Notes: generated by a model from the letters alone, not told the origin. DNA of 64,000 nt from Eledone cirrhosa (GCA_964016885.1 OZ024748.1:35092001-35156000), one strand, 5' to 3'; shown: positions 9,783 to 63,793, numbered from the stretch's first letter. Translations and numbers: made by a program.

Positions 9783-9817
<35 letters not shown>

Positions 9818-18828: not shown

Positions 18829-18861
<33 letters not shown>

Positions 18862-18922
18862 ATATATGTATATATATATATATATGTATATATGTATATA
18901 TATATGTATATATATGTATATA

Positions 18923-19010
<88 letters not shown>

Positions 19011-19020
19011 CATATATATA
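18828..19020. repeat. (TA)n microsatellite between RTE copies
   Basis: Read directly. Confidence 0.97.
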
Positions 19021-21328: not shown

Positions 21329-21380
21329 TTGTGTGTGTAAATATCTATATCTATCTATATATATATATACATATATATAT

Positions 21381-22281
21381 CATCATCAACGTTTAACGTC
21401 TATCTTCCACGCTAGCAAGGGTTAGACGGGAATTGTCCCACTTGAGGCAAGATTGGGTGAACATGTGATCGGGTGAACGTGTCTTGCTTGTGTAGCACTA
21501 TCTGGCAGGTTTGCTACAGCTGGATGCCCTTGCTAACACCAACCACATTTACAGTGTGGACTGGGAGGTTTTTACCGTGTTACCTACACGGCCACATTAC
21601 AGCGTGGACTGTGTGTTTTTTTGTCGTGATACCTACAAGACCTTATTAGTTTGGACTGGATGTTGTGGTACCAACATAACTTTACAGAGAAAGGGTGGTG
21701 TTGGTGGGGGATTGGGGTAGTGGGATGGGGGTGTATATTTGGTTAAGAGGTGCTTACTGACTGTAGGTTTCGCTTTGTAACTTCCAACAATTTTGATTGC
21801 CCTGTACTTTTTTATACAGCTGTCGTCTTTCATGCGCATTACATGACCATACCAACGTAGTTTTCTCTCAAGTAAACAACATCTGATCCCTCTTATTCCT
21901 AATTTCTCACTTAGTTCCTTTATGTTTTGCCGTTCATGTATATTACTATTGCACATCCAAAGGAGCATACATGATTCGTTCCTTTCCAGTCTGCGCAGGT
22001 CCTCTGCACACAATGCCCATGTCTGACTGCCATGTAACATTGCTGTTCGTATACAGGCATCAGACAATCTGCCTTTCATTTTTAGAGAGAAACCTTTAGC
22101 AGCCAATAGTAGTATAAGCTCTCTGAACTTTTTCCATCCCGTTCTGACTCTGGCTACTGTACTTTCAGAACACTCTCCACCACTGCTGATTTTGTCACCC
22201 AGGTAACGGAAATTGTCCACTATTTCTATAGAACCATCTAGGCAATAGAAGGAGCTAGTATCCTGTGGCACTTGCTACTTA
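21381..22281 (-). mobile_element. RTE-clade LINE (family B) copy 3, short 3' fragment
   Basis: ORF 21633-22271 (FRYLG...WYGHVMRM) with an internal deletion near 21780. Same 3' UTR and (ATG)n tail. Confidence 0.93.
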
Positions 22282-24157: not shown

Positions 24158-24300
24158 AATTGTATATACATATATCCCCTTAAACTCTGACACACCTGTG
24201 CTATAGTAACTGTTATCACCACAGTACCTCCCACACTGCTGACTCCCCTGCTGTCCAACCCCGTCAATAATGTAGAAAGAGCTCTTCAGTATCAATAATA

Positions 24301-24515
24301 AATTATTGATAGAAATGACAGGTTAGCTTGTGAAGTTAAGTAGTTGTGGTCAGTGAAAAAGGTGGTGGTAATACCAATAATAGTTGGAGTCTTGGGAACT
24401 GTGAGTAAAGATCTTCAGAAGGACACAAATAGGGATTGGAATACAGATGGAACACTTACAAAATACAGCATTGCTTGGAACAGATCGAATATACTGGTGG
24501 GTACTCGAAAAATAA
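24301..24515 (+). mobile_element. R4/Dong-clade non-LTR retrotransposon, C-terminal end of ORF (RLE region), 5'-truncated
   Basis: Translation (with a frameshift) DRLACEVK*LWSVKKVVVIPIIVGVLGTVSKDLQK / IGIGIQMEHLQNTALLGTDRIYWWVLEK*, stop TAA at 24513-24515. This resembles the R4/Dong terminus L..E...LW...V.V.P.V.GALG.....L......LQK.ALLGT.RI. Preceded by AATAATA. Confidence 0.85.
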
Positions 24516-24525
24516 GGATGAACAA

Positions 24526-24718
24526 CTAGAGATGTATTACAGTGGACTGAGGTAACACCCCTTATCTCGGTTTCTAACACTACAGATGTATTACAGTGAA
24601 CTGAGGTAACACCTCTTATCTAAGCTTCTAACACTAGAGATGTATTACAGTGGACTGAGATAACACCCCTTATCTCAGCTTCTAATACTAGAGATGTATT
24701 ACAGTTAACTGAGGTAAC
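24526..24718 (-). repeat. ~3.6 inverted monomers of the 54-bp satellite
   Basis: CTAGAGATGTATTACAGTGGACTGAGGTAACACCCCTTATCTC... is the reverse complement of the array monomer. Confidence 0.97.
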
Positions 24719-27700
24719 ACTGTAATACATCTCTAGTATTAGAAGCTGAGATAAGGGGTGTTACCTCAGTCCACTAATACATCTCTTGAGTTGGAAGCTG
24801 AGATAAGGAGTGTTACCTCAGTCCACTGTAATACATCTCTAGTGTTGGAAGATGAGATAAGGGGTGTTACCTCAGTCCACTGTAATACATCTCTAGTGTT
24901 AGAAGCTGAGATAAGGGGTGTTACCTCAGTCCACTGTAATACATCTCTAGTGTTGGAAGATGAGATAAGGGGTGTTACCTCAGTCCACTGTAATACATCT
25001 CTAGTGTTGGAAGATGAGATAAGGGGTGTTACCTCAGTCCACTGTAATACATCTCTAGTGTTAGAAGCTGAGATAAGGGGTGTTACCTCAGTCCACTGTA
25101 ATACATCTCTAGTGTTAGAAGCTGAGATAAGGGGTGTTACCTCAGTCCACTGTAATACATCTCTAGTGTTAGAAGCTGAGATAAGGAGTGTTACCTCAGT
25201 CCACTGTAATACATCTCTAGTGTTGGAAGATGAGATAAGAGGTGTTACCTCAGTCCACTGTAATACATCTATAGTGTTAGAAGCTGAGATAAGGGGTGTT
25301 ATCTCAGTCCACTGTAATACATCTCTAGTGTTAGAAGCTGAGATAAGGGGTGTTACCTCAGTCCACTGTAATACATCTCTAGTGTTAGAAGCTGAGATAA
25401 GGGGTGTTATCTCAGTCCACTGTAATACATCTCTAGTGTTAGAAGCTGAGATAAGGGGTGTTACCTCAGTCCACTGTAATACATCTCTAGTGTTAGAAGC
25501 TGAGATAAGGGGTGTTATCTCAGTCCACTGTAATACATCTCTAGTGTTAGAAGCTGAGATAAGGGGTGTTACCTCAGTCCACTGTAATACATCTCTAGTG
25601 TTGGAAGATGAGATAAGAGGTGTTACCTCAGTCCACAGTAATACATCTTTAGTGTTAGAAATTGAGATAAGGGTTGTTACCTCAGTCCACTGTAATACAT
25701 CTCTAGAGTTGGAAGCTGAGATAAGGGGTGTTACGTCAGTCCACTGTAATACATCTATAGTGTTACAAGCTGAGATAAGGGGTGTTACCTCTGTTCACTG
25801 TAATACATCTATAGTGTTAGAATCTGAGATAAGGGGTGTTACCTCAGTCCACTGTAATACATCTCTAGTGTTAGAAGCTGAGATAAGGGGTGTTACCTCA
25901 GTCCACTGTGATACATCTCTAGTGTTAGAAGCTGAGATAAGGGGTGTTATCTCAGTCCACTGTAATACATCTCTAGTGTTAGAAGCTGAGATAAGGGGTG
26001 TTACCTCAGTCCACTGTAATACATCTCTAGTGTTAGAAGCTGAGATAAGGGGTGTTACCTCAGTCCACTGTAATACATCTCTAGTGTTAGAAGCTGAGAT
26101 AAGGGGTGTTACCTCAGTCCACTGTAATACATCTCTAGTGTTAGAAGCTGAGATAAGGGGTGTTACCTCAGTCCACTGTAATACATCTCTAGTGTTAGAA
26201 GCTGAGATAAGGGGTATTACCTCAGTCCACTGTAATATATCTCTAGTGTTAGAAGCTGAGATAAGGGGTGTTATGTCAGTCCACTGTAATACATCTCTAG
26301 TGTTAGAAGCTTAGATAAGAGGTGTTACCTCAGTTCACTGTAATACATCTCTAGTGTTAGAAGCTGAGATAAGGGGTGTTATCTCAGTCCACTGTAATAC
26401 ATCTCTAGAGTTGGAAGCTGAGATAAGGGGTGTTACCTCAGTCCACTGTAATACATCTCTAGTGTTGGAAGATGAGATAAGGGGTGTTACCACAGTCCAC
26501 TGTAATACATCTCTAGAGTTGGAAGCTGAGATAAGGGGTGTTACCTCAGTCCACTGTAATACATCTCTAGTTTTGGAAGCTGAGATAAGGGGTGTTACCT
26601 CACTCCACTGTAATACATCTCTAGAGTTGGAAGCTGAGATAAGGGGTGTTACCTCAATCCACTGTAATACATCTATAGTGTTAGAAGCTTAGATAAGGGG
26701 TGTTACCTCAGTCCACTGTAATACATCTCTAGTGTTAGAAGCTGAGATAAGGGGTGTTACTTCAGTACACTGTAATACATCTCTCGTGTTAGAAGCTGAG
26801 ATAAGGGGTGTTATCTCAGTCCACTGTAATACATCTCCAGTGTTAGAAGCTGAGATAAGGGGTGTTACCTCAGTCCACTGTAATATATCTCTAGTGTTAG
26901 AATCTGAGATAAAAGGTGTTACCTCAGTCCACTGTAATACATCTCTAGTGTTAGAAGCTGAGATAAGGGGTGTTACCTCAGTGCACTGTAATACATCTCT
27001 AGTGTTGGGAGCTGAGATAAGGGGTGTTACCTCAGTCCACTGTAATACATCTCTAGTGTTAGAAGCTGAGATAAGAGGTGTTATCTCAGTCCACTGTAAT
27101 ACATCTCTAGTGTTAGATGCTGAGATAAGGGGTGTTACCTCAGTCCACTGTAATATATCTCTAGTGTTAGAATCTGAGATAAGGGGTGTTACCTCAGTCC
27201 ACTGTAATATATCTCTAGTGTTGGAAGCTGAGATAAGGGGTGTTACCTCAGTCCACTGTAATACATCTCTAGTGTTAGAAGCTGAGATAAGAGATGTTAT
27301 CTCAGTCCACTGTAATACATCTCTAGTGTTAGAAGCTGAGATAAGGGGTGTTACCTCAGTCCACTGTAATATATCTCTAGTGTTAGAATCTGAGATAAGG
27401 GGTGTTACGTCAGTCCACTGTAATACATCTCCAGTGTTAGAAGCTGAGATAAGGGGTATTATCTCAGTCCACTGTAATACATCTCTAGTGTTAGAAGCTG
27501 AGATAAGGGGTGTTACCTCAGTCCACTGTAATACATCTCTAGTGTTAGAAGCTGAGATAAGGGGTGTTACCTCAGTCCACTGTAATACATCTCTAGAGTT
27601 GGAAGCTGAGATAAGGGTGTTATCTCAGTCCACTGTAATACATCTCTAAAGTTGGAAGCTGTGATAAGGGTGTTATCTCAGTCCACTGTAATACATCTCT

Positions 27701-30700
27701 AGTGTTAGAAGCTGAGATAAGGGGTGTTACTTCAGTCCACTGTAATACATCTCTAGTGTTAAAAGCTGAGATAAGGGGTGTTATCTCAGTCCACTGTAAT
27801 ACATCTCCAGTGTAAGAAGCTGAGATAAGGTGTGTTATCTCAATCCACTGTAATACATCTCTACTGTTAGAAGCTGAGATAAGGGCTGTTATCTCAGTCC
27901 ACTGTAATACATCTCTAGTGTTAGAAGCTGAGATAAGGAGTGTTACCTCAGTCCACTGTAATACATCTCTAGTGTTGGAAGATGAGATAAGAGGTGTTAC
28001 CTCAGTCCACTGTAATACATCTTTAGTGTTAGAAGCTGAGATTAGGGGTGTTACCTCAGTCCACTGTAATACATCTCTAGGGTTAGAAACTGAGATAAAG
28101 GGTGTTATCTCAGTCCACTGTAATACATCTCTAGAGTTAGAAGCTGAGATAAGGGGTGTTATCTCAATCCACTGTAATACATCTCTAGTGTTAGAAACTC
28201 AGATAAGGAGTTACCTCAGTCCACTGTAATACATCTCTAGTGTTGGAAGATGAGATAAGGGGTGTTACCTCAGTCCACTGTAATATATCTCTAGTGTTAG
28301 AATCTGAGATAAGAGGTGTTACCTCAGTCAACTGTAATACATCTCTAGTGTTAGAAGCTGAGATAAGGGGTGTTACCTCAGTCAACTGTAATACATCTCT
28401 AGTGTTAGAAGCTGAGATAAGGGGTGTTACCTCAGTCAACTGTAATACATCTCTAGTTTTGGAAGCTGAGATAAGGGGTGTTACCTCAGTTCACTGTAAT
28501 CCACTGTAATACATCTCCAGTGTAAGAAGCTGAGATAAGGTGTGTTATCTCAATCCACTGTAATACATCTCTAGTGTTAGAAGCTGAGATAAGGAGTGTT
28601 ACCTCAGTCCACTGTAATACATCTCTAGTGTTGGAAGATGAGATAAGAGGTGTTACCTCAGTCCACTGAAATACATCTCTAGTGTTAGAAGCTGAGATAA
28701 GGAGTGTTACCTCAGTCCACTGTAATACATCTCTAGAGTTGGAAGCTGAGATAAGGGGTGTTACGTCAGTCCACTGTAATACATCTCCAGTGTTAGAAGC
28801 TGAGATAAGGGGTGTTACCTCAGTTCACTGTAATACATCTCCAGTGTTAGAAGCTGAGATAAGGGGTGTTACCTCAGTTCACTGTAATACATCTCTAGAG
28901 TTGGAAGCTGAGATAAGGGGTGTTACGTCAGTCCACTGTAATACATCTATAGTGTTACAAGCTGAGATAAGGGGTGTTACCTCAGTCCACTGTAATACAT
29001 CTCTAGTGTTGGAAGCTGAGATAAGGAGTGTTACCTCAGTCCACTGTAATACATCTCTAGTTTTGGAAGCTGAGATAAGGGGTGTTACCTCAGTTTACTG
29101 TAATACATCTCTAGTTTTGGAAGCTGAGATAAGGGGTGTTACCTCAGTCCACTGCAATACATCTCTAGTGTTAGAAGCTGAGATAAGGGGTGTTACCTCA
29201 GTCCACTGTAATACATCTCTAGTGTTAGAAGCTGAGATAAGGGGTGTTACCTCAGTCCACTGTAATACATCTCTAGAGTTGGAAGCTGAGATAAGGGTGT
29301 TATCTCAGTCCACTGTAATACATCTCTAAAGTTGGAAGCTGAGATAAGGGTGTTATCTCAGTCCACTGTAATACATCTCTAGTGTTAGAAGCTGAGATAA
29401 GGGGTGTTACTTCAGTCCAATGTAATACATCTCTAGTGTTGGAAGATGAGATAAGAGGTGTTACCTCAGTCCACTGTAATATATCTCTAGTGTTAGAATC
29501 TGAGATAAGAGGTGTTACCTCAGTCCACTGTAATACATCTCTAGTGTTAGAAGCTGAGATAAGGGGTGTTACCTCGGGCCACTGTAATACATCTCTAGTG
29601 TTAGAAGCTGAGATAAGGGGTGTTACCTCAGTCCACTGCAATACATCTCTAGTGTTAGAAGCTGAGATAAGGGGTGTTACCTCAGTCCACTGTAATACAT
29701 CTCCAGTGTTAGAAGCTGAGATAAGGGGTGTTACCTCAGTCCACTGTAATACATCTCTAGAGTTGGAAGCTGAGTTAAGGGGTGTTACCTCAGTCCACTG
29801 TAATACATCTCTAGTGTTAGAAGCTGAGATAAGGGCTGTTATCTCAGTCCACTGTAATACATCTCTAGAGTTGGAAGCTGAGATAAGGGGTGTTAACTCA
29901 GTCCACTGTAATACATCTCTAGTGTTAGAAGCTGAGATAAAGGGTGTTACCTCAGTCAACTGTAATACATCTCTAGTGTTAGAAGCTGAGATAAGGGATG
30001 TTATCTCAGTCCACTGTAATACATCTGTAAAGTTGGAAGCTGAGATAAGGGTGTTATCTCAGTCCACTGTAATACATCTCTAGTGTTAGAAGCTGAGATA
30101 AGGGGTGTTACTTCAGTCCACTGTAATACATCTCTAGTGTTAGAAGCTGAGATAAGGGGTGTTATCTCAGTCCACTGTAATACATCTCCAGTGTAAGAAG
30201 CTGAGATAAGGTGTGTTATCTCAATCCACTGTAATACATCTCTACTGTTAGAAGCTGAGATAAGGGCTGTTATCTCAGACCACTGTAATACATCTCTAGT
30301 GTTAGAAGCTGAGATAAGGAGTGTTCCCTCAGTCCACTGTAATACATCTCTAGTGTTGGAAGATGAGATAAGAGGTGTTACCTCAGTCCACTGTAATACA
30401 TCTTTAGTGTTAGAAGCTGAGATTAGGGGTGTTACCTCAGTCCACTGTAATACATCTCTAGTGTTAGAAACTGAGATAAAGGGTGTTATCTCAGTCCACT
30501 GTAATACATCTCTAGAGTTAGAAGCTGAGATAAGGGGTGTTATCTCAATCCACTGTAATACATCTCTAGTGTTAGAAACTCAGATAAGGAGTTACCTCAG
30601 TCCACTGTAATACATCTCTAGTGTTGGAAGATGAGATAAGAGGTGTTACCTCAGTCCACTGTAATACATCTCTAGTGTTAGAATCTGAGATAAGAGGTGT

Positions 30701-33700
30701 TACCTCAGTCCACTGTAATACATCTCTAGTGTTAGAAGCTGAGATAAGGGGTTTTACCTCAGTCCACTGTAATACATCTCTAGTGTTAGAAGCTGAGATA
30801 AGGAGTGTTATCTCAGTCCACTGTAATACATCTCTAGAGCTGGAAGCTGAGATAAGGGGTGTTACCTCAGTTCACTGTAATACATCTCCAGTGTTAGAAG
30901 CTGAGATAAGGGGTGTTACCTCAGTCCACTGTAATACATCTCTAGTGTTAGAAGCTGAGATTAGGGGTGTTACCTCAGTCCACTGTAATACATCTCTAGT
31001 GTTAGAAGCTGAGATAAGGGGTGTTACCTCAGTCCACTGTAATACATCTCTAGTGTTAGAAGCTGAGATAAGCAGTGTTATCTCAGTCCACTGTAATACA
31101 TCTCTAGAGCTGGAAGCTGAGATAAGGGGTGTTACGTCAGTTCACTGTAATACATCTCCAGTGTTAGAAGCTGAGATAAGGGGTGTTACCTCAGTCCACT
31201 GTAATACGTCTCTAGTGTTAGAAGCTGAGATAAGGGGTGTTACTTCAGTTCACTGTAAAACATCTCCAGTGTTGGAAGCTGAGATAAGAGGTGTTACCTC
31301 AATCCACTGTAATAGACCTGTAGAGTTGGAAGCTGAGATAAGGGGTGTTACCTCAGTCCACTGTAATACATCTCTAGTGTTAGAAGCTGAGATAAGGGGT
31401 GTTACCTCAGTCCACTGTAATACATCTCTAGTGTTAGAAGCTGAGATAAGGGGTGTTACCTCAGTCCACTGTAATATATCTCTAGTGTTAGAATCTGAGA
31501 TAAGGGGTGTTACGTCAGTCCACTGTAATACATCTCTAGTGTTAGAAGCTGAGATAAGGGGTGTTACCTCAGTCCACTGTAATACATCTCTAGTGTTAGA
31601 AGCTGAGATAAGGGGTGTTACCTCAGTCCACTGTAATACATCTCTAGTGTTAGAAGCTGAGATAAGGGGTGTTACCTCAGTTCACTGTAATACATCTCCA
31701 GTGTTAGAAGCTGAGATAAGGGGTGTTACCTCAGTCCACTGTAATACGTCTGTAGAGTTAGAAGCTGAGATAAGGGGTGTTACCTCAGTTCACTGTAATA
31801 CATCTATAGTGTTAGAATCGTAGATAAGGGGTGTTACCTCAGTCCACTGTAATACATCTATAGTGTTAGAAGCTGAGATAAGGGGTGTTACCTCAGTTCA
31901 CTGTAATACATCTCCAGTGTTAGAAGCTGAGATAAGGGGTTTATCTCAATCCACTGTAATACATCTCTAGTGTTAGAAGCTGAGATAAGGAGTGTTACCT
32001 CAGTCCACTGTAATACATCTCTAGTGTTGGAAGATGAGATAAGAGGTGTTACCTCAGTCCACAGTAATACATCTTTAGCGTTAGAAACTGAGATAAGGGG
32101 TTTTACCTCAGTCCACTGTAATACATCTCTAGTGTTAGAAGCTGAGATAAGGAGTGTTATCTCAGTCCACTGTAATACATCTCTAGAGCTGGAAGCTGAG
32201 ATAAGGGGTGTTACGTCAGTTCACTGTAATACATCTCCAGTGTTAGAAGCTGAGATAAGGGGTGTTACCTCAGTCCACTGTAATACATCTGTAGAGTTAG
32301 AAGCTGAGATAAGGGGTGTTACCTCAGTCCACTGTAATACATCTCTAGAGTTAGAAGCTGAGATAAGGAGTGTTACCTCAGTCCACTGTAATACATCTCT
32401 AGTTTTGGAAGCTGAGATAAGGGGTGTTACTTCAGTCCACTGTAATACATCTCTAGTGTTAGAAGCTGAGATAATGGGTGTTACCTCAGTCCACTGTAAT
32501 ACATCTATAGTGTTACAAGCTGAGATAAGGGGTGTTACCTCAGTTCACTGTAATACATCTATAGTGTTAGAATCGTAGATAAGGGGTGTTACCTCAGTCC
32601 ACTGTAATACATCTATAGTGTTAGAAGCTGAGATAAGGGGTGTTACCTCAGTTCACTGTAATACATCTCCAGTGTTAGAAGCTGAGATAAGAGGTTTATC
32701 TCAATCCACTGTAATACTTCTCTAGTGTTAGAAGCTGAGATAAGGAGTGTTACCTCAGTCCACTGTAATACATCTCTAGTGTTGGAAGATGAGATAAGAG
32801 GTGTTACCTCAGTCCACAGTAATACATCTTTAGCGTTAGAAACTGAGATAAGGGGTGTTACCTCAGTCCACTGTAATACCTCTCTAGAGTTGGAAGCTGA
32901 GATAAGGGGTGTTACGTCAGTCCACTGTAATACATCTATAGTGTTACAAGCTGTTATAAGGGGTGTTACCTCAGTCCACTGTAATACATCTCTAGTTTTG
33001 GAAGCTGAGATAAGGGGTGTTACCTCAGTCCACTGTAATACATCTGTAGAGTTAGAAGCTGAGATAAGGGGTGTTACCTCAGTCCACTGTAATACATCTC
33101 TAGAGTTAGAAGCTGAGATAAGGGGTGTTACCTCAGTCCACTGTAATACATCTCTAGTGTTAGAAGCTGAGATAAGGGGTGTTACCTCAGTCCACTGTAA
33201 TACATCTATAGTGTTACAAGCTGAGATAAGGGGTGTTACCTCAGTTCACTGTAATACATCTATAGTGTTAGAATCGTAGATAAGGGGTGTTACCTCAGTC
33301 CACTGTAATACATCTATAGTGTTAGAAGCTGAGATAAGGGGTGTTACCTCAGTTCACTGTAATACATCTCCAGTGTTAGAAGCTGAGATAAGGGGTTTAT
33401 CTCAATCCACTGTAATACATCTCTAGTGTTAGAAGCTGAGATAAGGAGTGTTACCTCAGTCCACTGTAATACATCTCTAGTGTTGGAAGATGAGATAAGA
33501 GGTGTTACCTCAGTCCACAGTAATACATCTTTAGCGTTAGAAACTGAGATAAGGGGTTTTACCTCAGTCCACTGTAATACATCTCTAGTGTTAGAAGCTG
33601 AGATAAGGAGTGTTATCTCAGTCCACTGTAATACATCTCTAGAGATGGAAGCTGAGATAAGGGGTGTTACGTCAGTTCACTGTAATACATCTCCAGTGTT

Positions 33701-36700
33701 AGAAGCTGAGATAAGGGGTGTTACCTCAGTCCACTGTAATACATCTCTAGTGTTAGAAGCTGAGATAAGGGGTGTTACTTCAGTTCACTGTAAAACATCT
33801 CCAGTGTTGGAAGCTGAGATAAGAGGTGTTACCTCAATCCACTGTAATAGACCTGTAGAGTTGGAAGCTGAGATAAGGGGTGTTACCTCAGTCCACTGTA
33901 ATACATCTCTAGTGTTAGAAGCTGAGATAAGGGGTGTTACCTCAGTCCACTGTAATACATCTCTAGTGTTAGAAGCTGAGATAAGGGGTGTTACCTCAGT
34001 CCACTGTAATATATCTCTAGTGTTAGAATCTGAGATAAGGGGTGTTACGTCAGTCCACTGTAATACATCTCTAGTGTTAGAAGCTGAGATAAGGGGTGTT
34101 ACCTCAGTCCACTGTAATACATCTCTAGTGTTAGAAGCTGAGATAAGGGGTGTTACCTCAGTTCACTGTAATACATCTCCAGTGTTAGAAGCTGAGATAA
34201 GGGGTGTTACCTCAGTCCACTGTAATACATCTGTAGAGTTAGAAGCTGAGATAAGGGGTGTTACCTCAGTCCACTGTAATACATCTCTAGAGTTAGAAGC
34301 TGAGATAAGGAGTGTTACCTCAGTCCACTGTAATACATCTCTAGTTTTGGAAGCTGAGATAAGGGGTGTTACTTCAGTCCACTGTAATACATCTCTAGTG
34401 TTAGAAGCTGAGATAATGGGTGTTACCTCAGTCCACTGTAATACATCTATAGTGTTACAAGCTGAGATAAGGGGTGTTACCTCAGTTCACTGTAATACAT
34501 CTATAGTGTTAGAATCGTAGATAAGGGGTGTTACCTCAGTCCACTGTAATACATCTATAGTGTTAGAAGCTGAGATAAGGGGTGTTACCTCAGTTCACTG
34601 TAATACATCTCCAGTGTTAGAAGCTGAGATAAGGGGTTTATCTCAATCCACTGTAATACTTCTCTAGTGTTAGAAGCTGAGATAAGGAGTGTTACCTCAG
34701 TCCACTGTAATACATCTCTAGTGTTGGAAGATGAGATAAGAGGTGTTACCTCAGTCCACAGTAATACATCTTTAGCGTTAGAAACTGAGATAAGGGGTGT
34801 TACCTCAGTCCACTGTAATACATCTCTAGAGTTGGAAGCTGAGATAAGGGGTGTTACGTCAGTCCACTGTAATACATCTATAGTGTTACAAGCTGAGATA
34901 AGGGGTGTTACCTCAGTCCACTGTAATACATCTCTAGTTTTGGAAGCTGTGATAAGGGGTGTTACCTCAGTCCACTGTAATACATCTCTAGTTTTGGAAG
35001 CTGAGATAAGGGGTGTTACCTCAGTTCACTGTAATACATCTCTAGTTTTGTAAGCTGAGATAAGGGGTGTTACCTCAGTCCACTGTAATACATCTCTAGT
35101 TTTGGAAGCTGAGATAAGGGGTGTTACCTCAGTCCACTGTAATACATCTCTAGTGTTAGAAGCTGAGATAAGGGGTGTTACCTCAGTCCACTGTAATACA
35201 TCTCTAGTGTTAGAAGCTGAGATAAGGGGTGTTACCTCAGTCCACTGTAATACATCTCTAGTGTTAGAAGCTGAGATAAGGGGTGTTACCTCAGTTCACT
35301 GTAATACATCTCCAGTGTTAGAAGCTGAGATAAGGGGTGTTACCTCAGTCCACTGTAATACATCTGTAGAGTTAGAAGCTGAGATAAGGGGTGTTACCTC
35401 AGTCCACTGTAATACATCTCTAGAGTTAGAAGCTGAGATAAGGAGTGTTACCTCAGTCCACTGTAATACATCTCTAGTTTTGGAAGCTGAGATAAGGGGT
35501 GTTACTTCAGTCCACTGTAATACATCTCTAGTGTTAGAAGCTGAGATAATGGGTGTTACCTCAGTCCACTGTAATACATCTATAGTGTTACAAGCTGAGA
35601 TAAGGGGTGTTACCTCAGTTCACTGTAATACATCTATAGTGTTAGAATCGTAGATAAGGGGTGTTACCTCAGTCCACTGTAATACATCTATAGTGTTAGA
35701 AGCTGAGATAAGGGGTGTTACCTCAGTTCACTGTAATACATCTCCAGTGTTAGAAGCTGAGATAAGGGGTTTATCTCAATCCACTGTAATACTTCTCTAG
35801 TGTTAGAAGCTGAGATAAGGGGTGTTACCTCAGTCCACTGTAATACATCTCTAGTTTTGGAAGCTGAGATAAGGGGTGTTACCTCAGTCCACTGTAATAC
35901 ATCTCTAGTGTTAGAAGCTGAGATAAGGGGTGTTACCTCAGTCCACTGTAATACATCTCTAGTGTTAGAAGCTGAGATAAGGGGTGTTACCTCAGTCCAC
36001 TGTAATACATCTCTAGTGTTAGAAGCTGAGATAAGGGGTGTTACCTCAGTTCACTGTAATACATCTCCAGTGTTAGAAGCTGAGATAAGGGGTGTTACCT
36101 CAGTCCACTGTAATACATCTGTAGAGTTAGAAGCTGAGATAAGGGGTGTTACCTCAGTCCACTGTAATACATCTCTAGAGTTAGAAGCTGAGATAAGGAG
36201 TGTTACCTCAGTCCACTGTAATACATCTCTAGTTTTGGAAGCTGAGATAAGGGGTGTTACTTCAGTCCACTGTAATACATCTCTAGTGTTAGAAGCTGAG
36301 ATAATGGGTGTTACCTCAGTCCACTGTAATACATCTATAGTGTTACAAGCTGAGATAAGGGGTGTTACCTCAGTTCACTGTAATACATCTATAGTGTTAG
36401 AATCGTAGATAAGGGGTGTTACCTCAGTCCACTGTAATACATCTATAGTGTTAGAAGCTGAGATAAGGGGTGTTACCTCAGTTCACTGTAATACATCTCC
36501 AGTGTTAGAAGCTGAGATAAGGGGTTTATCTCAATCCACTGTAATACTTCTCTAGTGTTAGAAGCTGAGATAAGGAGTGTTACCTCAGTCCACTGTAATA
36601 CATCTCTAGTGTTGGAAGATGAGATAAGAGGTGTTACCTCAGTCCACAGTAATACATCTTTAGCGTTAGAAACTGAGATAAGGGGTGTTACCTCAGTCCA

Positions 36701-51700: not shown

Positions 51701-54700
51701 TACATCTCTAGTGTTAGAATCTGAGATAAGAGGTGTTACCTCAGTCCACTGTAATACATCTCTAGTGTTAGAAGCTGAGATAAGGGGTTTTACCTCAGTC
51801 CACTGTAATACATCTCTAGTGTTAGAAGCTGAGATAAGGAGTGTTATCTCAGTCCACTGTAATACATCTCTAGAGCTGGAAGCTGAGATAAGGGGTGTTA
51901 CGTCAGTTCACTGTAATACATCTCCAGTGTTAGAAGCTGAGATAAGGGGTGTTACCTCAGTCCACTGTAATACATCTCTAGTGTTAGAAGCTGAGATAAG
52001 GGGTGTTACCTCAGTCCACTGTAATACATCTCTAGTGTTAGAAGCTGAGATAAGGGGTGTTACCTCAGTCCACTGTAATACATCTCTAGTGTTAGAAGCT
52101 GAGATAAGGAGTGTTATCTCAGTCCACTGTAATACATCTCTAGAGCTGGAAGCTGAGATAAGGGGTGTTACGTCAGTTCACTGTAATACATCTCCAGTGT
52201 TAGAAGCTGAGATAAGGGGTGTTACCTCAGTCCACTGTAATACATCTCTAGTGTTAGAAGCTGAGATAAGGGGTGTTACTTCAGTTCACTGTAAAACATC
52301 TCCAGTGTTGGAAGCTGAGATAAGAGGTGTTACCTCAATCCACTGTAATAGACCTGTAGAGTTGGAAGCTGAGATAAGGGGTGTTACCTCAGTCCACTGT
52401 AATACATCTCTAGTGTTAGAAGCTGAGATAAGGGGTGTTACCTCAGTCCACTGTAATACATCTCTAGTGTTAGAAGCTGAGATAAGGGGTGTTACCTCAG
52501 TCCACTGTAATATATCTCTAGTGTTAGAATCTGAGATAAGGGGTGTTACGTCAGTCCACTGTAATACATCTCTAGTGTTAGAAGCTGAGATAAGGGGTGT
52601 TACCTCAGTCCACTGTAATACATCTCTAGTGTTAGAAGCTGAGATAAGGGGTGTTACCTCAGTCCACTGTAATACATCTCTAGTGTTAGAAGCTGAGATA
52701 AGGGGTGTTACCTCAGTTCACTGTAATACATCTCCAGTGTTAGAAGCTGAGATAAGGGGTGTTACCTCAGTCCACTGTAATACATCTGTAGAGTTAGAAG
52801 CTGAGATAAGGGGTGTTACCTCAGTCCACTGTAATACATCTCTAGAGTTAGAAGCTGAGATAAAGGGTGTTACCTCAGTCCACTGTAATACATCTCTAGT
52901 TTTGGAAGCTGAGATAAGGGGTGTTACTTCAGTCCACTGTAATACATCTCTAGTGTTAGAAGCTGAGATAAGGGGTGTTACCTCAGTCCACTGTAATACA
53001 TCTATAGTGTTACAAGCTGAGATAAGGGGTGTTACCTCAGTTCACTGTAATACATCTATAGTGTTAGAATCGTAGATAAGGGGTGTTACCTCAGTCCACT
53101 GTAATACATCTATAGTGTTAGAAGCTGAGATAAGGGGTGTTACCTCAGTTCACTGTAATACATCTCCAGTGTTAGAAGCTGAGATAAGGGGTTTATCTCA
53201 ATCCACTGTAATACATCTCTAGTGTTAGAAGCTGAGATAAGGAGTGTTACCTCAGTCCACTGTAATACATCTCTAGTGTTGGAAGATGAGATAAGAGGTG
53301 TTACCTCAGTCCACAGTAATACATCTTTAGCGTTAGAAACTGAGATAAGGGGTTTTACCTCAGTCCACTGTAATACATCTCTAGTGTTAGAAGCTGAGAT
53401 AAGGAGTGTTATCTCAGTCCACTGTAATACATCTCTAGAGCTGGAAGCTGAGATAAGGGGTGTTACGTCAGTTCACTGTAATACATCTCCAGTGTTAGAA
53501 GCTGAGATAAGGGGTGTTACCTCAGTCCACTGTAATACATCTCTAGTGTTAGAAGCTGAGATAAGGGGTGTTACCTCAGTCCACTGTAATACATCTCTAG
53601 TGTTAGAAGCTGAGATAAGGGGTGTTACCTCAGTCCACTGTAATACATCTCTAGTGTTAGAAGCTGAGATAAGGAGTGTTATCTCAGTCCACTGTAATAC
53701 ATCTCTAGAGCTGGAAGCTGAGATAAGGGGTGTTACCTCAGTCCACTGTAATACATCTATAGTGTTAGAAGCTGAGATAAGGGGTGTTACCTCAGTTCAC
53801 TGTAATACATCTCCAGTGTTAGAAGCTGAGATAAGGGGTTTATCTCAATCCACTGTAATACTTCTCTAGTGTTAGAAGCTGAGATAAGGAGTGTTACCTC
53901 AGTCCACTGTAATACATCTCTAGTGTTGGAAGATGAGATAAGAGGTGTTACCTCAGTCCACAGTAATACATCTTTAGCGTTAGAAACTGAGATAAGGGGT
54001 GTTACCTCAGTCCACTGTAATACATCTCTAGAGTTGGAAGCTGAGATAAGGGGTGTTACGTCAGTCCACTGTAATACATCTATAGTGTTACAAGCTGAGA
54101 TAAGGGGTGTTACCTCTGTTCACTGTAATACATCTATAGTGTTAGAATCTGAGATAAGGGGTGTTACCTTAGTCCACTGTAATACATCTCTAGTTTTTGA
54201 AGCTGAGATAAGGGGTGTTACCTCAGTCCACTGTAATACATCTCTAGTTTTGGAAGCTGAGATAAGGGGTGTTACCTCAGTCCACTGTAATACATCTCTA
54301 GTTTTGGAAGCTGAGATAAGGGGTGTTACCTCAGTTCACTGTAATACATCTCTAGTTTTGGAAGCTGAGATAAGGGGTGTTACCTCAGTCCACTGTAATA
54401 CATCTCTAGTGTTAGAAGCTGAGATAAGGGGTGTTACCTCAGTCCACTGTAATACATCTATAGTGTTACAAGCTGAGATAAGGGGTGTTACCTCAGTTCA
54501 CTGTAATACATCTATAGTGTTAGAATCTGAGATAAGGGGTGTTACCTCAGTCCACTGTAATACATCAATAGTGTTAGAAGCTGAGATAAGGGGTGTTATC
54601 TCAGTCCACTGTAATACATCTGTAGTGTTAGAAGATAGATAAGGGGTGTTACCTCAGTCCACTGTAATACATCTCTAGTGTTAGAAGCTGAGATAAGGGG

Positions 54701-57700
54701 TGTTATCTAAGTCCACTGTAATACATCTTCAGTGTTTGAAGCTGAGATAAGGGGTTTATCTCAATCCACTGTAATACATCTCTAGTGTTAGAAGCTGAGA
54801 TAAGGAGTGTTACTTCAGTCCACTGTAATACATCTCTAGTGTTGGAAGATGAGATAAGAGGTGTTACCTCAGTCCACTGTAATACATCTCTAGTGTTGGA
54901 TGCTGAGATAAGGGGTGTTACCTCAGTCCACTGTAATATATCTCTAGTGTTAGAATCTGAGATAAGGGGTGTTACCTCAGTCCACTAATACATCTCCAGT
55001 GTTAGAAGCTGAGATAAGGGGTGTTATCTCAGTCCACTGAAATACATCTCTAGAGTTGGAAGCTGAGATAAGGGTGTTATCTCAGTCCACTTTAATACAT
55101 CTTTAGTGTTAGAAGCTGAGATAAGGGGTGTTACCTCAGTCCACTGTAATACATCTCTAGTGTTAGAAGCTGAGATAAGGGGTGTTACCTCAGTCCACTG
55201 TAATACATCTCTAGTGTTAGAAGCTGAGATAAGGGGTGTTACCTCAGTCCGCTGTAATACATCTCTAGTGTTAGAAGCTGAGATAAAGGGTGTTACCTCA
55301 GTCCAATGTAATACATCTCTAGTGTTAGAAGCTGAGATAAGGGGTGTTATCTCAGTCCACTGTAATACATCTCTAGAGTTGGAAGCTGAGATAAGGGTGT
55401 TATCTCAGTCCACTGTAATACATCTCTAGAGTTGGAAGCTGAGTTAAGGGGTGTTATCTCAGTCCACTGTAATACATCTCTAGGGTTAGAAGATGAGATA
55501 AGGGGTGTTACCTCAGTCCACTGTAATACATCTCTAGTGTTAGAAGCTGAGATAAGGGCTGTTATCTCAGTCCACTGTAATACATCTCTAAAGTTGGAAG
55601 CTGAGATAAGGGGTGTTAACTCAGTCCACTGTAATACATCTCTAGTGTTAGAAGCCGAGATAAAGGGTGTTACCTCAGTCCACTGTAATACATCTCTAGT
55701 GTTAGAAGCTGAGATAAGGGGTGTTATCTCAGTCCACTGTAATACATCTCTAAAGTTTGAAGCTGAGATAAGGGTGTTATCTCAGTCCACTGTAATACAT
55801 CTTTAGTCTTAGAAGCTGAGATAAGGGGTGTTACCTCTGGAAGCTGAGATAAGGGGTGTTACCTCAGTTCACTGTAATCCACTGTAATACATCTCCAGTG
55901 TAAGAAGCCAGAGAGAAGGTGTGTTATCTCAATCCACTGTAATACATCTGTAGTGTTAGAAGCTGAGATAAGGGCTGTTATCTCAGTCCACTGTAATACA
56001 TCTCTAGTGTTAGAAGCTGAGATAAGGAGTGTTACCTCAGTCCACTGTAATACATCTCTAGTGTTGGAAGATGAGATAAGAGGTGTTACCTCAGTCCACA
56101 GTAATACATCTTTAGCGTTAGAAACTGAGATAAGGGGTGTTACCTCAGTCCACTGTAATACATCTCTAGAGTTGGAAGCTGAGATAAGGGGTGTTACGTC
56201 AGTCCACTGTAATACATCTATAGTGTTACAAGCTGAGATAAGGGGTGTTACCTCAGTTCACTGTAATACATCTCTAGTTTTGGAAGCTGAGATAAGGGGT
56301 GTTACCTCAGTCAACTGTAATACATCTCTAGTTTTGGAAGCTGAGATAAGGGGTGTTACCTCAGTTCACTGTAATACATCTCTAGTTTTGTAAGCTGAGA
56401 TAAGGGGTGTTACCTCAGTCCACTGTAATACATCTCTAGTTTTGGAAGCTGAGATAAGGGGTGTTACCTCAGTCCACTGTAATACATCTCTAGTGTTAGA
56501 AGCTGAGATAAGGGGTGTTACCTCAGTCCACTGTAATACATCTATAGTGTTACAAGCTGAGATAAGGGGTGTTACCTCAGTTCACTGTAATACATCTCTA
56601 GTTTTGTAAGCTGAGATAAGGGGTGTTACCTCAGTCCACTGTAATACATCTCTAGTTTTGGAAGCTGAGATAAGGGGTGTTACCTCAGTCCACTGTAATA
56701 CATCTCTAGTGTTAGAAGCTGAGATAAGGGGTGTTATCTCAGTCCACTGTAATACATCTCTAGAGTTAGAAGCTGAGATAAGGGGTGTTATCTCAATCCA
56801 CTGTAATACATCTCTAGTGTTAGAAACTCAGATAAGGAGTTACCTCAGTCCACTGTAATACATCTCTAGTGTTGGAAGATGAGATAAGAGGTGTTACCTC
56901 AGTCCACTGTAATACATCTCTAGTGTTAGAATCTGAGATAAGAGGTGTTACCTCAGTCCACTGTAATACATCTCTAGTGTTAGAAGCTGAGATAAGGGGT
57001 TTTACCTCAGTCCACTGTAATACATCTCTAGTGTTAGAAGCTGAGATAAGGAGTGTTATCTCAGTCCACTGTAATACATCTCTAGAGCTGGAAGCTGAGA
57101 TAAGGGGTGTTACGTCAGTTCACTGTAATACATCTCCAGTGTTAGAAGCTGAGATAAGGGGTGTTACCTCAGTCCACTGTAATACATCTCTAGTGTTAGA
57201 AGCTGAGATAAGGGGTGTTACCTCAGTCCACTGTAATACATCTCTAGTGTTAGAAGCTGAGATAAGGGGTGTTACCTCAGTCCACTGTAATACATCTCTA
57301 GTGTTAGAAGCTGAGATAAGGAGTGTTATCTCAGTCCACTGTAATACATCTCTAGAGCTGGAAGCTGAGATAAGGGGTGTTACGTCAGTTCACTGTAATA
57401 CATCTCCAGTGTTAGAAGCTGAGATAAGGGGTGTTACCTCAGTCCACTGTAATACATCTCTAGTGTTAGAAGCTGAGATAAGGGGTGTTACTTCAGTTCA
57501 CTGTAAAACATCTCCAGTGTTGGAAGCTGAGATAAGAGGTGTTACCTCAATCCACTGTAATAGACCTGTAGAGTTGGAAGCTGAGATAAGGGGTGTTACC
57601 TCAGTCCACTGTAATACATCTCTAGTGTTAGAAGCTGAGATAAGGGGTGTTACCTCAGTCCACTGTAATACATCTCTAGTGTTAGAAGCTGAGATAAGGG

Positions 57701-60700
57701 GTGTTACCTCAGTCCACTGTAATATATCTCTAGTGTTAGAATCTGAGATAAGGGGTGTTACGTCAGTCCACTGTAATACATCTCTAGTGTTAGAAGCTGA
57801 GATAAGGGGTGTTACCTCAGTCCACTGTAATACATCTCTAGTGTTAGAAGCTGAGATAAGGGGTGTTACCTCAGTCCACTGTAATACATCTCTAGTGTTA
57901 GAAGCTGAGATAAGGGGTGTTACCTCAGTTCACTGTAATACATCTCCAGTGTTAGAAGCTGAGATAAGGGGTGTTACCTCAGTCCACTGTAATACATCTG
58001 TAGAGTTAGAAGCTGAGATAAGGGGTGTTACCTCAGTCCACTGTAATACATCTCTAGAGTTAGAAGCTGAGATAAGGGGTGTTACCTCAGTCCACTGTAA
58101 TACATCTCTAGTTTTGGAAGCTGAGATAAGGGGTGTTACTTCAGTCCACTGTAATACATCTCTAGTGTTACAAGCTGAGATAAGGGGTGTTACCTCTGTT
58201 CACTGTAATACATCTATAGTGTTAGAATCTGAGATAAGGGGTGTTACCTTAGTCCACTGTAATACATCTCTAGTTTTTGAAGCTGAGATAAGGGGTGTTA
58301 CCTCAGTCCACTGTAATACATCTCTAGTTTTGGAAGCTGAGATAAGGGGTGTTACCTCAGTCCACTGTAATACATCTCTAGTTTTGGAAGCTGAGATAAG
58401 GGGTGTTACCTCAGTTCACTGTAATACATCTCTAGTTTTGGAAGCTGAGATAAGGGGTGTTACCTCAGTCCACTGTAATACATCTCTAGTGTTAGAAGCT
58501 GAGATAAGGGGTGTTACCTCAGTCCACTGTAATACATCTATAGTGTTACAAGCTGAGATAAGGGGTGTTACCTCAGTTCACTGTAATACATCTATAGTGT
58601 TAGAATCTGAGATAAGGGGTGTTACCTCAGTCCACTGTAATACATCAATAGTGTTAGAAGCTGAGATAAGGGGTGTTATCTCAGTCCACTGTAATACATC
58701 TGTAGTGTTAGAAGATAGATAAGGGGTGTTACCTCAGTCCACTGTAATACATCTCTAGTGTTAGAAGCTGAGATAAGGGGTGTTATCTAAGTCCACTGTA
58801 ATACATCTTCAGTGTTTGAAGCTGAGATAAGGGGTTTATCTCAATCCACTGTAATACATCTCTAGTGTTAGAAGCTGAGATAAGGAGTGTTACTTCAGTC
58901 CACTGTAATACATCTCTAGTGTTGGAAGATGAGATAAGAGGTGTTACCTCAGTCCACTGTAATACATCTCTAGTGTTGGATGCTGAGATAAGGGGTGTTA
59001 CCTCAGTCCACTGTAATATATCTCTAGTGTTAGAATCTGAGATAAGGGGTGTTACCTCAGTCCACTAATACATCTCCAGTGTTAGAAGCTGAGATAAGGG
59101 GTGTTATCTCAGTCCACTGAAATACATCTCTAGAGTTGGAAGCTGAGATAAGGGTGTTATCTCAGTCCACTTTAATACATCTTTAGTGTTAGAAGCTGAG
59201 ATAAGGGGTGTTACCTCAGTCCACTGTAATACATCTCTAGTGTTAGAAGCTGAGATAAGGGGTGTTACCTCAGTCCACTGTAATACATCTCTAGTGTTAG
59301 AAGCTGAGATAAGGGGTGTTACCTCAGTCCGCTGTAATACATCTCTAGTGTTAGAAGCTGAGATAAAGGGTGTTACCTCAGTCCAATGTAATACATCTCT
59401 AGTGTTAGAAGCTGAGATAAGGGGTGTTATCTCAGTCCACTGTAATACATCTCTAGAGTTGGAAGCTGAGATAAGGGTGTTATCTCAGTCCACTGTAATA
59501 CATCTCTAGAGTTGGAAGCTGAGTTAAGGGGTGTTATCTCAGTCCACTGTAATACATCTCTAGTGTTAGAAGCTGAGATAAGGGGTGTTATCTCAATCCA
59601 CTGTAATACATCTCTAGTGTTAGAAGCTGAGATAAGGGCTGTTATCTCAGTCCACTGTAATACATCTCTAAAGTTGGAAGCTGAGATAAGGGGTGTTAAC
59701 TCAGTCCACTGTAATACATCTCTAGTGTTAGAAGCCGAGATAAGGGGTGTTACCTCAGTCCACTGTAATACATCAATAGTGTTAGAAGCTGAGATAAGGG
59801 GTGTTATCTCAGTCCACTGTAATACATCTGTAGTGTTAGAAGATAGATAAGGGGTGTTACCTCAGTCCACTGTAATACATCTCTAGTGTTAGAAGCTGAG
59901 ATAAGGGGTGTTATCTAAGTCCACTGTAATACATCTTCAGTGTTTGAAGCTGAGATAAGGGGTTTATCTCAATCCACTGTAATACATCTCTAGTGTTAGA
60001 AGCTGAGATAAGGAGTGTTACTTCAGTCCACTGTAATACATCTCTAGTGTTGGAAGATGAGATAAGAGGTGTTACCTCAGTCCACTGTAATACATCTCTA
60101 GTGTTGGATGCTGAGATAAGGGGTGTTACCTCAGTCCACTGTAATATATCTCTAGTGTTAGAATCTGAGATAAGGGGTGTTACCTCAGTCCACTAATACA
60201 TCTCCAGTGTTAGAAGCTGAGATAAGGGGTGTTATCTCAGTCCACTGTAATACATCTCTAGAGTTGGAAGCTGAGATAAGGGTGTTATCTCAGTCCACTT
60301 TAATACATCTTTAGTGTTAGAAGCTGAGATAAGGGGTGTTACCTCAGTCCACTGTAATACATCTCTAGTGTTAGAAGCTGAGATAAGGGGTGTTACCTCA
60401 GTCCACTGTAATACATCTCTAGTGTTAGAAGCTGAGATAAGGGGTGTTACCTCAGTCCGCTGTAATACATCTCTAGTGTTAGAAGCTGAGATAAAGGGTG
60501 TTACCTCAGTCCAATGTAATACATCTCTAGTGTTAGAAGCTGAGATAAGGGGTGTTATCTCAGTCCACTGTAATACATCTCTAGAGTTGGAAGCTGAGAT
60601 AAGGGTGTTATCTCAGTCCACTGTAATACATCTCTAGAGTTGGAAGCTGAGTTAAGGGGTGTTATCTCAGTCCACTGTAATACATCTCTAGTGTTAGAAG

Positions 60701-63700
60701 CTGAGATAAGGGGTGTTATCTCAATCCACTGTAATACATCTCTAGTGTTAGAAGCTGAGATAAGGGCTGTTATCTCAGTCCACTGTAATACATCTCTAAA
60801 GTTGGAAGCTGAGATAAGGGGTGTTAACTCAGTCCACTGTAATACATCTCTAGTGTTAGAAGCCGAGATAAAGGGTGTTACCTCAGTCCACTGTAATACA
60901 TCTCTAGTGTTAGAAGCTGAGATAAGGGGTGTTATCTCAGTCCACTGTAATACATCTCTAAAGTTTGAAGCTGAGATAAGGGTGTTATCTCAGTCCACTG
61001 TAATACATCTTTAGTGTTAGAAGCTGAGATAAGGGGTGTTACCTCTGGAAGCTGAGATAAGGGGTGTTACCTCAGTTCACTGTAATACATCTCCAGTGTA
61101 AGAAGCCAGAGATAAGGTGTGTTATCTCAATCCACTGTAATACATCTGTAGTGTTAGAAGCTGAGATAAGGGCTGTTATCTCAGTCCACTGTAATACATC
61201 TCTAGTGTTAGAAGCTGAGATAAGGAGTGTTACCTCAGTCCACTGTAATACATCTCTAGTGTTGGAAGATGAGATAAGAGGTGTTACCTCAGTCCACTGT
61301 AATACATCTTTAGTGCTAGAAGCTGAGATTAGGGGTGTTACCTTAGTCCACTGTAATACATCTTTAGTGTTAGAAACTGAGATAAGGGGTGTTATCTCAG
61401 TACACTGTAATACATCTCTAGTGTTAGAAGCTGAGATAAGGGGTGTTATCTCAATCCACTGTAATACATCTCTAGTGTTAGAAGCTGAGATAAGGAGTGT
61501 TACCTCAGTCCACTGTAATACATCTCTAGTGTTGGAAGATGAGATAAGAGGTGTTACCTCAGTCGACTGTAATACATCTCTAGTGTTAGAAGCTGAGATA
61601 AGGGGTGTTACCTCAGTTCACTGTAATACATCTCCAGTTTTATAAGCTGAGATAAGGGGTGTTACCTCAGTTCACTGCAATACATCTCCAGTGTTAGAAG
61701 CTGAGATAAGGGGTGTTACCTCAGTCCACTGTAATACATCTCTAGAGTTGGAAGCTGAGATAAGGGGTGTTACGTTAGTCCACTGTAATACATCTATAGT
61801 GTTACAAGCTGAGATAAGGGGTGTTACCTCAGTTCACTGTAATACATCTATAGTGTTAGAAGCTGAGATAAGGGGTGTTACCTCAGTCCACTGTAATACA
61901 TCTCTAGAGTTGGAAGCTGAGATAAGGGGTGTTACGTTAGTCCACTGTAATACATCTCTAGTGTTAGAAGCTGAGATAAGGGGTGTTACCTCAGTTCACT
62001 GTAATACTTCTCCAGTTTTATAAGCTGAGATAAGGGGTGTTACCTCAGTTCACTGTAATACATCTCCAGTGTTAGAAGCTGAGATAAGGGGTGTTACCTC
62101 AGTCCACTGTAATACATCTCTAGAGTTGGAAGCTGAGATAAGGGGTGTTACGTTAGTCCACTGTAATACATCTATAGTGTTACAAGCTGAGATAAGGGGT
62201 GTTACCTCAGTTCACTGTAATACATCTATAGTGTTAGAAGCTGAGATAAGGGGTGTTACCTCAGTCCACTGTAATACATCTCTAGAGTTGGAAGCTGAGA
62301 TAAGGGGTGTTACGTTAGTCCACTGTAATACATCTATAGTGTTAGAATCTGAGATAAGGGGTGTTACCTCAGTCCACTGTAATACATCTATAGTGTTAGA
62401 AGCTGAGATAAGGGGTGTTACCTCAGTTCACTGTAATACATCTCCAGTGTTAGAAGCTGAGATAAGGGGTGTTACCTCAGTCCACTGTAATACATCTCTA
62501 GAGTTGGAAGCTGAGATAAGGGGTGTTACGTTAGTCCACTGTAATACATCTCTAGTGTTACAAGCTGAGATAAGGGGTGTTACCTCAGTTCACTGTAATA
62601 CATCTATAGTGTTAGAATCTGAGATAAGGGGTGTTACCTCAGTCTACTGTAATACATCTATAGTGTTAGAAGCTGAGATAACGGGTGTTACCTCAGTTCA
62701 CTGTAATACATCTCTAGTTTTGGAAGCTGAGATAAGAGGTGTTACCTCAGTTCACTGTAATACATCTCTAGTTTTGGAAGCTGAGATAAGGGGTGTTACC
62801 TCAGTCCACTGTAATACATCTCTAGTGTTGGAAGATGAGATAAGGGGTGTTACCTCAGTCCACTGTAATACATCTATAGTGTTAGAATCTGAGATAAGGG
62901 GTGTTACCTCAGTCCACTGTAATACTTCTATAGTGTTAGAAGCTGAGATAAGGGGTGTTACCTCAGTCCACTGTAATACATCTATAGTGTTAGAATCTGA
63001 GATAAGGGGTGTTACCTCAGTCCACTGTAATACATCAATAGTGTTAGAAGCTGAGATAAGAGGTGTTACCTCAGTTCACTGTAATACATCTCCAGTGTTC
63101 GAAGCTGAGATAAGGGGTGTTACCTCAGTCCACTGTAATACATCTCTAGTGTTAGAAGCTGAGATAAGGGGTGTTATCTCGGTCTACCGTAATACATCTC
63201 TAGTGTTAGAAGCTGAGATAAGGGGTGTTATCTCAATCCACTGTAATACATCTGTAGTGTTAGAAGCTGAGATAAGGGGTGTTATCTAAGTCCACTGTAA
63301 TACATCTCCAGTGTTTGAAGCTGAGATAATGGGTTTATCTCAATCCACTGTAATACATCTCTAGTGTTAGAAACTGAGATAAGGAGTGTTACCTCAGTCC
63401 ACTGTAATACATCTCTAGAGTTGGAAGCTGAGATAAGGGTGTTATCTCAGTCCACTGTAATACATCTCTAGAGTTGGAAGCTGAGTTAAGGGGTGTTATC
63501 TCAGTCCACTGTAATACATCTCTAGTGTTGGAAGATGAGATAAGAGGTGTTACCTCAGTCCACTGTAATACATCTCTAGTGTTGGAAGATGAGATAAGAG
63601 GTGTTACCTCAGTCCACTGTAATACATCTCTAGTGTTAGAAGCTGAGATAAGAGGTGTTATCTCAGTCCACTGTAATACATCTCTAGTGTTAGAAGCTGA

Positions 63701-63775
63701 GATATGGGGCGTTACCTCAGTCCACTGGTAGTGAACAGCTAACACTGTAATACATCTCTAGTGTTAGAAGCTGAG
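24719..63775 (+). repeat. ~39-kb satellite array of a 54-bp monomer (about 720 copies) with higher-order structure
   Basis: Consensus GAGATAAGGGGTGTTACCTCAGTCCACTGTAATACATCTCTAGTGTTAGAAGCT repeated head-to-tail throughout, with recurrent point and 1-2-bp indel variants. Confidence 0.99.
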
Positions 63776-63793
63776 TGCAGAAACAATAATAAT
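63701..63793 (+). mobile_element. Putative 3' UTR and (AAT)n tail of the R4/Dong-like element
   Basis: The last unit carries an extra 20 bp (GTAGTGAACAGCTAACACTG, 63728-63747), then GAAGCTGAG TGCAGAAAC AATAATAAT (63785-63793). Confidence 0.75.

Follow-up and report, generated by a model that had tools for sequence, protein, structure and literature searches.

Introduction

Satellites derived from transposon 3′ UTRs are already known. Short arrays in the 3′ UTR of Ogre elements occasionally expand into satellites, examples being PisTR-A in pea and the FabTR repeats of Lathyrus sativus (PMC7004042). Reviews of LINE-derived satellites list the common cetacean satellite, from the 3′ end of L1, the chicken HinfI satellite, from CR1, and the Drosophila 18HT satellite, from HeT-A/TART (PMC9659126, PMC6947457); satellites from the 3′ regions of L1, CR1, and HeT-A are also reviewed in PMC12628747. 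How a first tandem copy arises, and why some arrays run away, is a long-standing question about satellite DNA, since few satellites still have their ancestor beside them.

The array described here adjoins a LINE that resembles Dong/R4 elements, which target TAA (PMC3812793); the TAA-targeting Dong, DongAg, and DongBg are RLE elements of the R4 clade (PMC3812793, PMC4640811), and Dong-R4 elements are abundant in octopus (PMC13282606, PMC8967140). Literature searches over titles and the opening parts of abstracts found no Dong/R4-derived satellite; “Dong” has no match in the main text of PMC9659126, and no word beginning with “satellite” occurs in the main texts of PMC8967140 and PMC13282606, where supplements or repeat libraries could hold the family. 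The present case is set in a LINE and is replicated many times: most of its 33 loci retain the ancestor and both boundaries and have, in the ORF stump, an internal clock, and together they form a series from 2 to ~720 units, in several unit lengths, from one 74-bp parent.

Results

The window, by which we mean the whole 64-kb stretch of Eledone cirrhosa DNA that was analysed (OZ024748.1, contig C8:35092001-35156000, in a genome of 3.0 Gb), contains a 54-bp-period array (TRF) of ~722 unit lengths, set between the two ends of a LINE:

24294..24301, +, target remnant or possible target-site duplication, AATAATAA (sequence)
24305..24515, +, decayed ORF stump, truncated at its 5′ end, from an RLE-type (R4/Dong-like) LINE (tblastn; family-consensus alignment)
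24512..24528, +, scarred first UTR unit, ATAAGG plus part of the 20-bp segment (comparison with dispersed copies)
24525..24720, −, inverted block of 3.6 × 54-bp monomers, inside the 20-bp segment (TRF)
24718..63727, +, 54-bp satellite array, ~722 units, with near-exact block repeats at offsets of 4.08-5.2 kb (TRF)
63702..63775, +, last unit, a full 74-bp UTR (matches the UTR of dispersed copies)
63776..63793, +, LINE terminus TGCAGAAAC with (AAT)3 tail (same terminus in dispersed copies)

The array, the ORF stop at 24515, and the 74-bp unit at the right end all lie where the preliminary description of this DNA had put them (TRF, sequence). The 655 full monomers comprise 145 distinct 54-mers, with a mean divergence of 4.2% from the array consensus. 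In tblastn, positions 24305-24512 correspond to the C-terminal end, ~70 aa, of proteins of RLE-type LINEs (P0004 443-513, E 8.6e-10), with one stop and one frameshift; TAA at 24513-24515 is followed by GGA and then by TGAACAACTA at 24519-24528. The 20-bp segment is intact in the last unit, at 63728-63747; GTAGTGAACA occurs once in the window, at 63728, and a scan of the window placed TAACACTG at 24715 and 63740 and at an unrelated site, 15651. Remnants of the segment had been reported on the left at 24519-24528 and 24715-24722; both were located, but a 196-bp inverted block between them had been overlooked. AATAATAA is present on both sides of the insertion and is indistinguishable from the AAT tail, and the flanks gave eight matches, all weak, with no paralogue that could represent an empty target site. 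A short-read contig (24135-24371) spans the left flank and ORF stump with 0 differences in runs X1 and X2, which are one sample, possibly the assembly's own.

Elsewhere in the window, a CT-rich 25-bp minisatellite of ~94 copies occupies 8331-10723 (TRF). We take an open frame at 3973-4755 (−) to resemble a Tc1/mariner transposase, another at 14404-15354 (−) to resemble a Penelope-like RT/GIY-YIG element, and 11926-14130 and 16733-22274 (−) to hold several decayed RTE-like LINE fragments. Just beyond the window's end, ~250 bp past the LINE tail, is an MPPED2-like metallophosphoesterase coding exon (C8:35156041-35156322, L206:42-323; Pfam Metallophos, PDB 3rl4 E 9e-14) that follows an AG acceptor-like site; the array therefore probably lies in an intron of that gene or just upstream of it. 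We claim no function for the array.

The host element fits an RLE-type, R4/Dong-like LINE, the R4/Dong label coming from domain features and the TAA tail. A longer copy (L122) encodes P0001, which matches Pfam RVT_1 (E 3.4e-9) as a non-LTR-type reverse transcriptase, the closest solved structures to which are R2 proteins. Homologues have a single ORF of ~1,100-1,200 aa; a CCHC knuckle and a PD-(D/E)xK (PD..D) endonuclease motif occur together in 31 of the 32 that are at least 1,080 aa long, and the APE family is absent from the three proteins scanned. The C-terminal CCHC and endonuclease motifs are still visible in a decayed copy (L126), and the window stump maps to the C-terminus of the protein. 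Nearly all copies have (AAT)n tails. The 5′ junction has AAT-like repeats no more than 15 bp away in 13/32 copies versus 3/32 controls, which points to a target preference that is not strict.

The window's ORF stump and its terminal 74-bp unit are parts of one LINE. Among 29 other loci read after the best 40 of 380 candidates from an ORF-stump search were scored, the ORF end continues into the UTR in every one, with the UTR present once in 27 and repeated in 2; as anticipated from the window alone, dispersed copies run contiguously from ORF end through UTR to (AAT)n, mostly terminating in GAAGAAAC(AAT)n or CpG-decayed versions of it. Comparison with these copies also bears out the proposal that the 54-bp monomer is the 74-bp UTR minus 20 bp between two CACTG motifs. 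In a sample unbiased for the UTR, 48 copies chosen solely by an ORF 21-mer, the UTR is single in 41, arrayed in 4, and missing from 3. Duplication probably began with the complete 74-bp UTR, the loss of 20 bp being secondary and recurrent.

At least 33 loci on 21 contigs, the window included, carry more than one UTR unit, with 2 to 617 units at the other 32 and 2,450 units counted in all (the window entered as 700, an undercount). The best 40 of 491 candidates from a right-end search were scored, and pattern searches supplied further loci. This count of loci is not complete: the 26 loci found first account for 1,157 of 1,311 join matches, a figure that predates the addition of seven more loci; 8 of the 12 matches to an independent pattern were already among the known array loci. 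The array hosts, spread over 21 contigs, differ in their flanks and 5′ ends and are separate insertions. The order of ORF, array, and tail recurs at loci short enough for safe assembly, and three arrays (L073, L087, C6:101.35M) have the tail without this LINE family's ORF. Arrays of at least 120 units are found at six loci, among them:

C12:18470074-18515695, 74-bp-unit array, 45.6 kb, 617 units, directly after the ORF end
C3:2594373-2615188, 74-bp-unit array, 20.8 kb, 277 units, directly after the ORF end
C28:34277877-34292874, 74-bp-unit array, 15.0 kb, 195 units, directly after the ORF end
C17:11.79-11.80M, 74-bp-unit array, 120 units, directly after the ORF end
C6:101339780-101349094, second 54-bp satellite (L112, L113, L063), 8.7 kb, 161 inverted and 8 forward units and tail

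Unit lengths over all arrays are 74, 76, 70, 60, 56, 54, 40, and 34 bp. The 54-bp deleted unit, which the preliminary description had proposed to seek elsewhere, forms arrays at C6:101.35M, C6:100.78M, and C20:34.02M and is also present in one single-UTR copy; exact copies of its deletion junction number 537 in the genome, of which the window contains 420, C6:101.35M 85, and another four loci 10 between them, with 22 unplaced.

All array loci share one head-to-tail join, GAG|ATAAG. At 26 loci 1,140 of 1,157 junctions read GAG-AT-AAG and the remainder are single-base variants; slippage on the AAG present at both the start and the end of the UTR should yield CG, TG, or CA, which appears in 0 of these 1,157. 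No alternative join was seen at the 33 loci, and the join is without microhomology in the normal element. The array had been read as a unique birth at this locus; with the identical join at 32 other loci, that reading is not supported, and the join was likely made once. A variant, 58T, reaches at least 15% in 16/25 arrays versus 1/38 single UTRs (p 8e-8) and is absent from 4 of 6 arrays found later by other patterns; the window's end was the query for many array loci, leaving some residual bias towards the window's variants. Despite this bias, the simplest reading of these sequences remains a common origin of the join. Arrays on the same contig share more variants (p 0.001), an excess that stands at p 0.011 with more loci and at p 0.058 without pairs less than 5 Mb apart, in a test whose 15% variant threshold and weights were our own choice. 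This sharing points to DNA-level exchange: two C6 loci 570 kb apart have four variants in common. An identical 40-bp unit with a G-to-A change is found at C6:100.78M and C21:28.45M.

Block repeats and locus-private variants show that the long array grew in place. Within the window array exact runs of 22-33 units recur at offsets of 4.08-9.7 kb, and near-exact blocks of 4.8-4.9 kb are repeated. Private variants are fixed in L072, L074, L075, and L076, the last being one trimer repeated three times, and in several small arrays they reach the first or last unit; L213 contains two founder types ~7 changes apart plus hybrids of both aged founders, and the two units of L136 are both aged. The arrays likely expanded separately in place. 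Of the ~720-fold amplification of one insertion in place that had been proposed for the window, growth in place and the preservation of both ends stand, and origin in a single event does not. The window's 39-kb array would exceed what one retrotransposition event could deliver.

Judged by divergence, the window units are as old as the window's own ORF stump (6.9% from the family consensus versus 14/199, or 7.0%). Across loci, internal array units diverge by 4.2% versus 7.7% for single UTRs, and by 2.2% versus 10.4% over the first 13 bases. From these counts we excluded CpG positions, repeated entries for a single locus, and copies that lack a UTR or are truncated within it.

The UTR contains two imperfect inverted repeats. 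It folds modestly better than shuffled sequences (DNA z −2.05, 10/300; RNA z −1.9, 13/300), and the 54-bp dimer shows no strong folding (z +0.77, +0.32). In some copies one hairpin arm has been changed so that it pairs perfectly with its partner, sometimes with the 3-base spacer inverted; perfected arms occur in 3 of the 41 single copies of the unbiased sample and in arrays. Deletions across the hairpins have several different end points, giving units of 54, 56, 40, and 34 bp. Hairpin-1 scars are found in 11/30 first units of arrays versus 3/41 single UTRs (p 0.005), and rearrangements of any kind in 11/30 versus 7/41 (p 0.10), first-unit scars having been scored by hand; in the window's scarred first unit the left arm of hairpin 1 is gone.

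The window's inverted block (24525-24720, 196 bp) is entered via CTA on the left and left via TAACAC on the right, both microhomologies. The TAACAC exit makes TAACACTG both a remnant and an inversion junction, and the return junction has the same sequence as a perfected hairpin arm. The block was copied from 54-bp units and so postdates the array; its source within the forward array gave no exact match, the best having 12 mismatches in 198. In quasi-palindrome template-switch mutation, imperfect inverted repeats are perfected and the spacer may invert. The perfected arms, inverted spacer, and inverted insert between short microhomologies seen here resemble that process, and the unit variants of 34, 40, 54, 56, 60, 74, and 76 bp, together with the inversion, would match hairpin template switches.

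In twin priming, which produces 5′ inversions of L1, the inverted 5′ part joins the target directly and the forward 3′ part keeps the tail. We rejected this for the window, where the inversion has both its breakpoints within the UTR and a forward ORF upstream. The C6:101.35M locus has a shape that recalls a twin-primed insertion, and its left flank resembles a different LINE; no target-site duplication was found there.

Discussion

We prefer, with slightly less than even confidence, a reading in which a source element with a duplicated UTR seeded the loci, and the window copy then grew to ~720 units. The head-to-tail join likely arose a single time, in that element, and retrotransposition would likely have carried short arrays of two to a few units to many loci; unequal exchange likely expanded the window copy in place to ~720 units. 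Hairpin template switching or slippage would have produced the 20-bp deletion, which swept the window array, and the same hairpin process could account for the 34-, 40-, 56-, 60-, and 76-bp units elsewhere and for the window's left-end inverted block. Some nearby arrays would later have undergone DNA-level exchange. The single join, the aged founders, and the tailed arrays without an ORF favour such a source element, arrays of the last kind (L073, L087, C6:101.35M) being expected from 5′ truncation within an array.

The host ORFs do not mark a lineage of array-bearing copies. No ORF change distinguishes them, the best occurring in 5/16 versus 2/39, so that we rejected an array-specific ORF subfamily; hosts share ORF changes in excess (p 0.045), a figure to which one close pair on the same contig contributes. 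The idea that array copies have shorter ORF stumps was likewise rejected (median 192 versus 246 bp, p 0.23), and no long array-bearing source element was seen, the longest array-host stump being ~1 kb. The pair L071/L080 was not taken to prove a mobile array master, since its members are only 2.3 Mb from each other on C18 and single copies that form close pairs are also mostly same-contig neighbours. Near-identical single-copy pairs (L013/L020, L016/L017, L177/L178, L234/L238, L028/L110) each lie on one contig, 0.1-17 Mb apart, which suggests local duplications in this genome. In one further host (L220:1330-1503) the last ~70 bp of the ORF diverge sharply from the family with the Dong-like frame kept, possibly as a chimera with a sister family; as a separate subfamily it was rejected, with no close relative in 40 scored matches (best 83%, short partials aside).

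The lack of an ORF diagnostic, the equal stumps, the younger internal units, and the same-contig sharing argue against a source element and for DNA-level copying, by which arrays would have spread after insertion: a hairpin break in an old single-UTR copy would be repaired from an existing array, with ectopic gene conversion or synthesis-dependent strand annealing copying several units and the join. We consider this somewhat unlikely. It would suit hosts that are star-like and show no array lineage, internal units that appear younger than their hosts' first A block (3.5% versus 8.6%), and variants common to arrays on one contig, such as the four at the two C6 loci, as well as the 40-bp unit with its G-to-A change on C6 and C21. 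Against it, the founders in arrays of 2-4 units are aged, the window units are of the same age as their host, some arrays have a tail without an ORF, the same-contig signal weakens once close pairs are removed, and the join still requires a single origin.

The scarred first units fit such conversion, and equally a jump of the reverse transcriptase, which would make a short array afresh at some insertions by jumping back and recopying the UTR, re-annealing, despite two mismatched terminal bases, on the AAG close to the 3′ end of the RNA. Low-level template jumping has been reported for R2Bm in vitro (PMC10499050). A jump of this kind would give one join without an array lineage and equal stump lengths, would place scars in the unit on the ORF side, and would accord with a steady share of insertions with arrays (4/48, 2/29, 5/24) and with the one host whose ORF end is chimeric. 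Enzyme slips should however scatter the join positions, where the 33 loci show no other join, and the abundance of 58T in arrays against its rarity in single copies would be left unexplained; we think this origin unlikely.

Independent DNA replication slippage at each locus, window included, generalises the in-place origin first suggested for the window and is highly improbable, the uniform join already disfavouring independent origins. The UTR is indeed a deletion hot spot with varied end points (54, 56, 40, and 34 bp), and a CG-to-AT change, possibly hairpin-templated, could create the ATAAG direct repeats on which slippage would act; one single-UTR copy (L129) terminates in GAGATAAGAAAC, yet it could be a collapsed array. 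The predicted ATAAG-type terminus is present in only 3 tail-ending arrays, most retaining the CG-derived terminus, the join is without microhomology in the normal element, and variants are shared between arrays. Finally, it is unlikely in the extreme that the window's two ends come from different insertions, through assembly error or recombination through the array: none of the short-read contigs listed (runs X1, X2) bridges ORF stump and array, the target-site duplication is inseparable from the AAT tail, and near-exact 4.8-kb blocks could be mis-assembled in number, but the same ORF-array-tail anatomy stands at safely assembled short loci and the microhomology structure of the left junction is coherent.

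Beyond seeding by a source element, it is quite possible, if on balance not what we expect, that the LINE's hairpin 3′ UTR is a self-spreading satellite seed, propagating one join by homology or by its own reverse transcriptase. About one copy in ten would then have been converted into an array, and at least six satellites, 8-46 kb long and differing in unit length, would have been launched independently, providing replicate, datable satellite births from one ancestor.

The host has in common with the Dong/R4 clade, as far as described, a reverse transcriptase, a CCHC knuckle, a PD-(D/E)xK-type endonuclease, an (AAT)n tail, and enrichment at AAT repeats; the descriptions drawn on here (PMC3812793, PMC4640811) make no mention of a tandemly repeated UTR. 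In its working the system is similar to Ogre as reported, with short arrays in many dispersed elements, few of them expanded, and element sequence still adjoining. It is not a member of that group: Ogre is an LTR element (Ty3/Ogre) and the host here is a non-LTR RLE element, whose unit takes in almost all of the 74-bp UTR, always with the same join, and whose UTR is single in 41/48 copies. As in the cetacean, HinfI, and 18HT satellites, the monomer comes from the 3′ part of a non-LTR retrotransposon. For those satellites, the origin as summarised in reviews is drawn from monomer similarity; here most arrays still lie between ORF end and tail, and the range from 1 to ~720 units is found in one genome.
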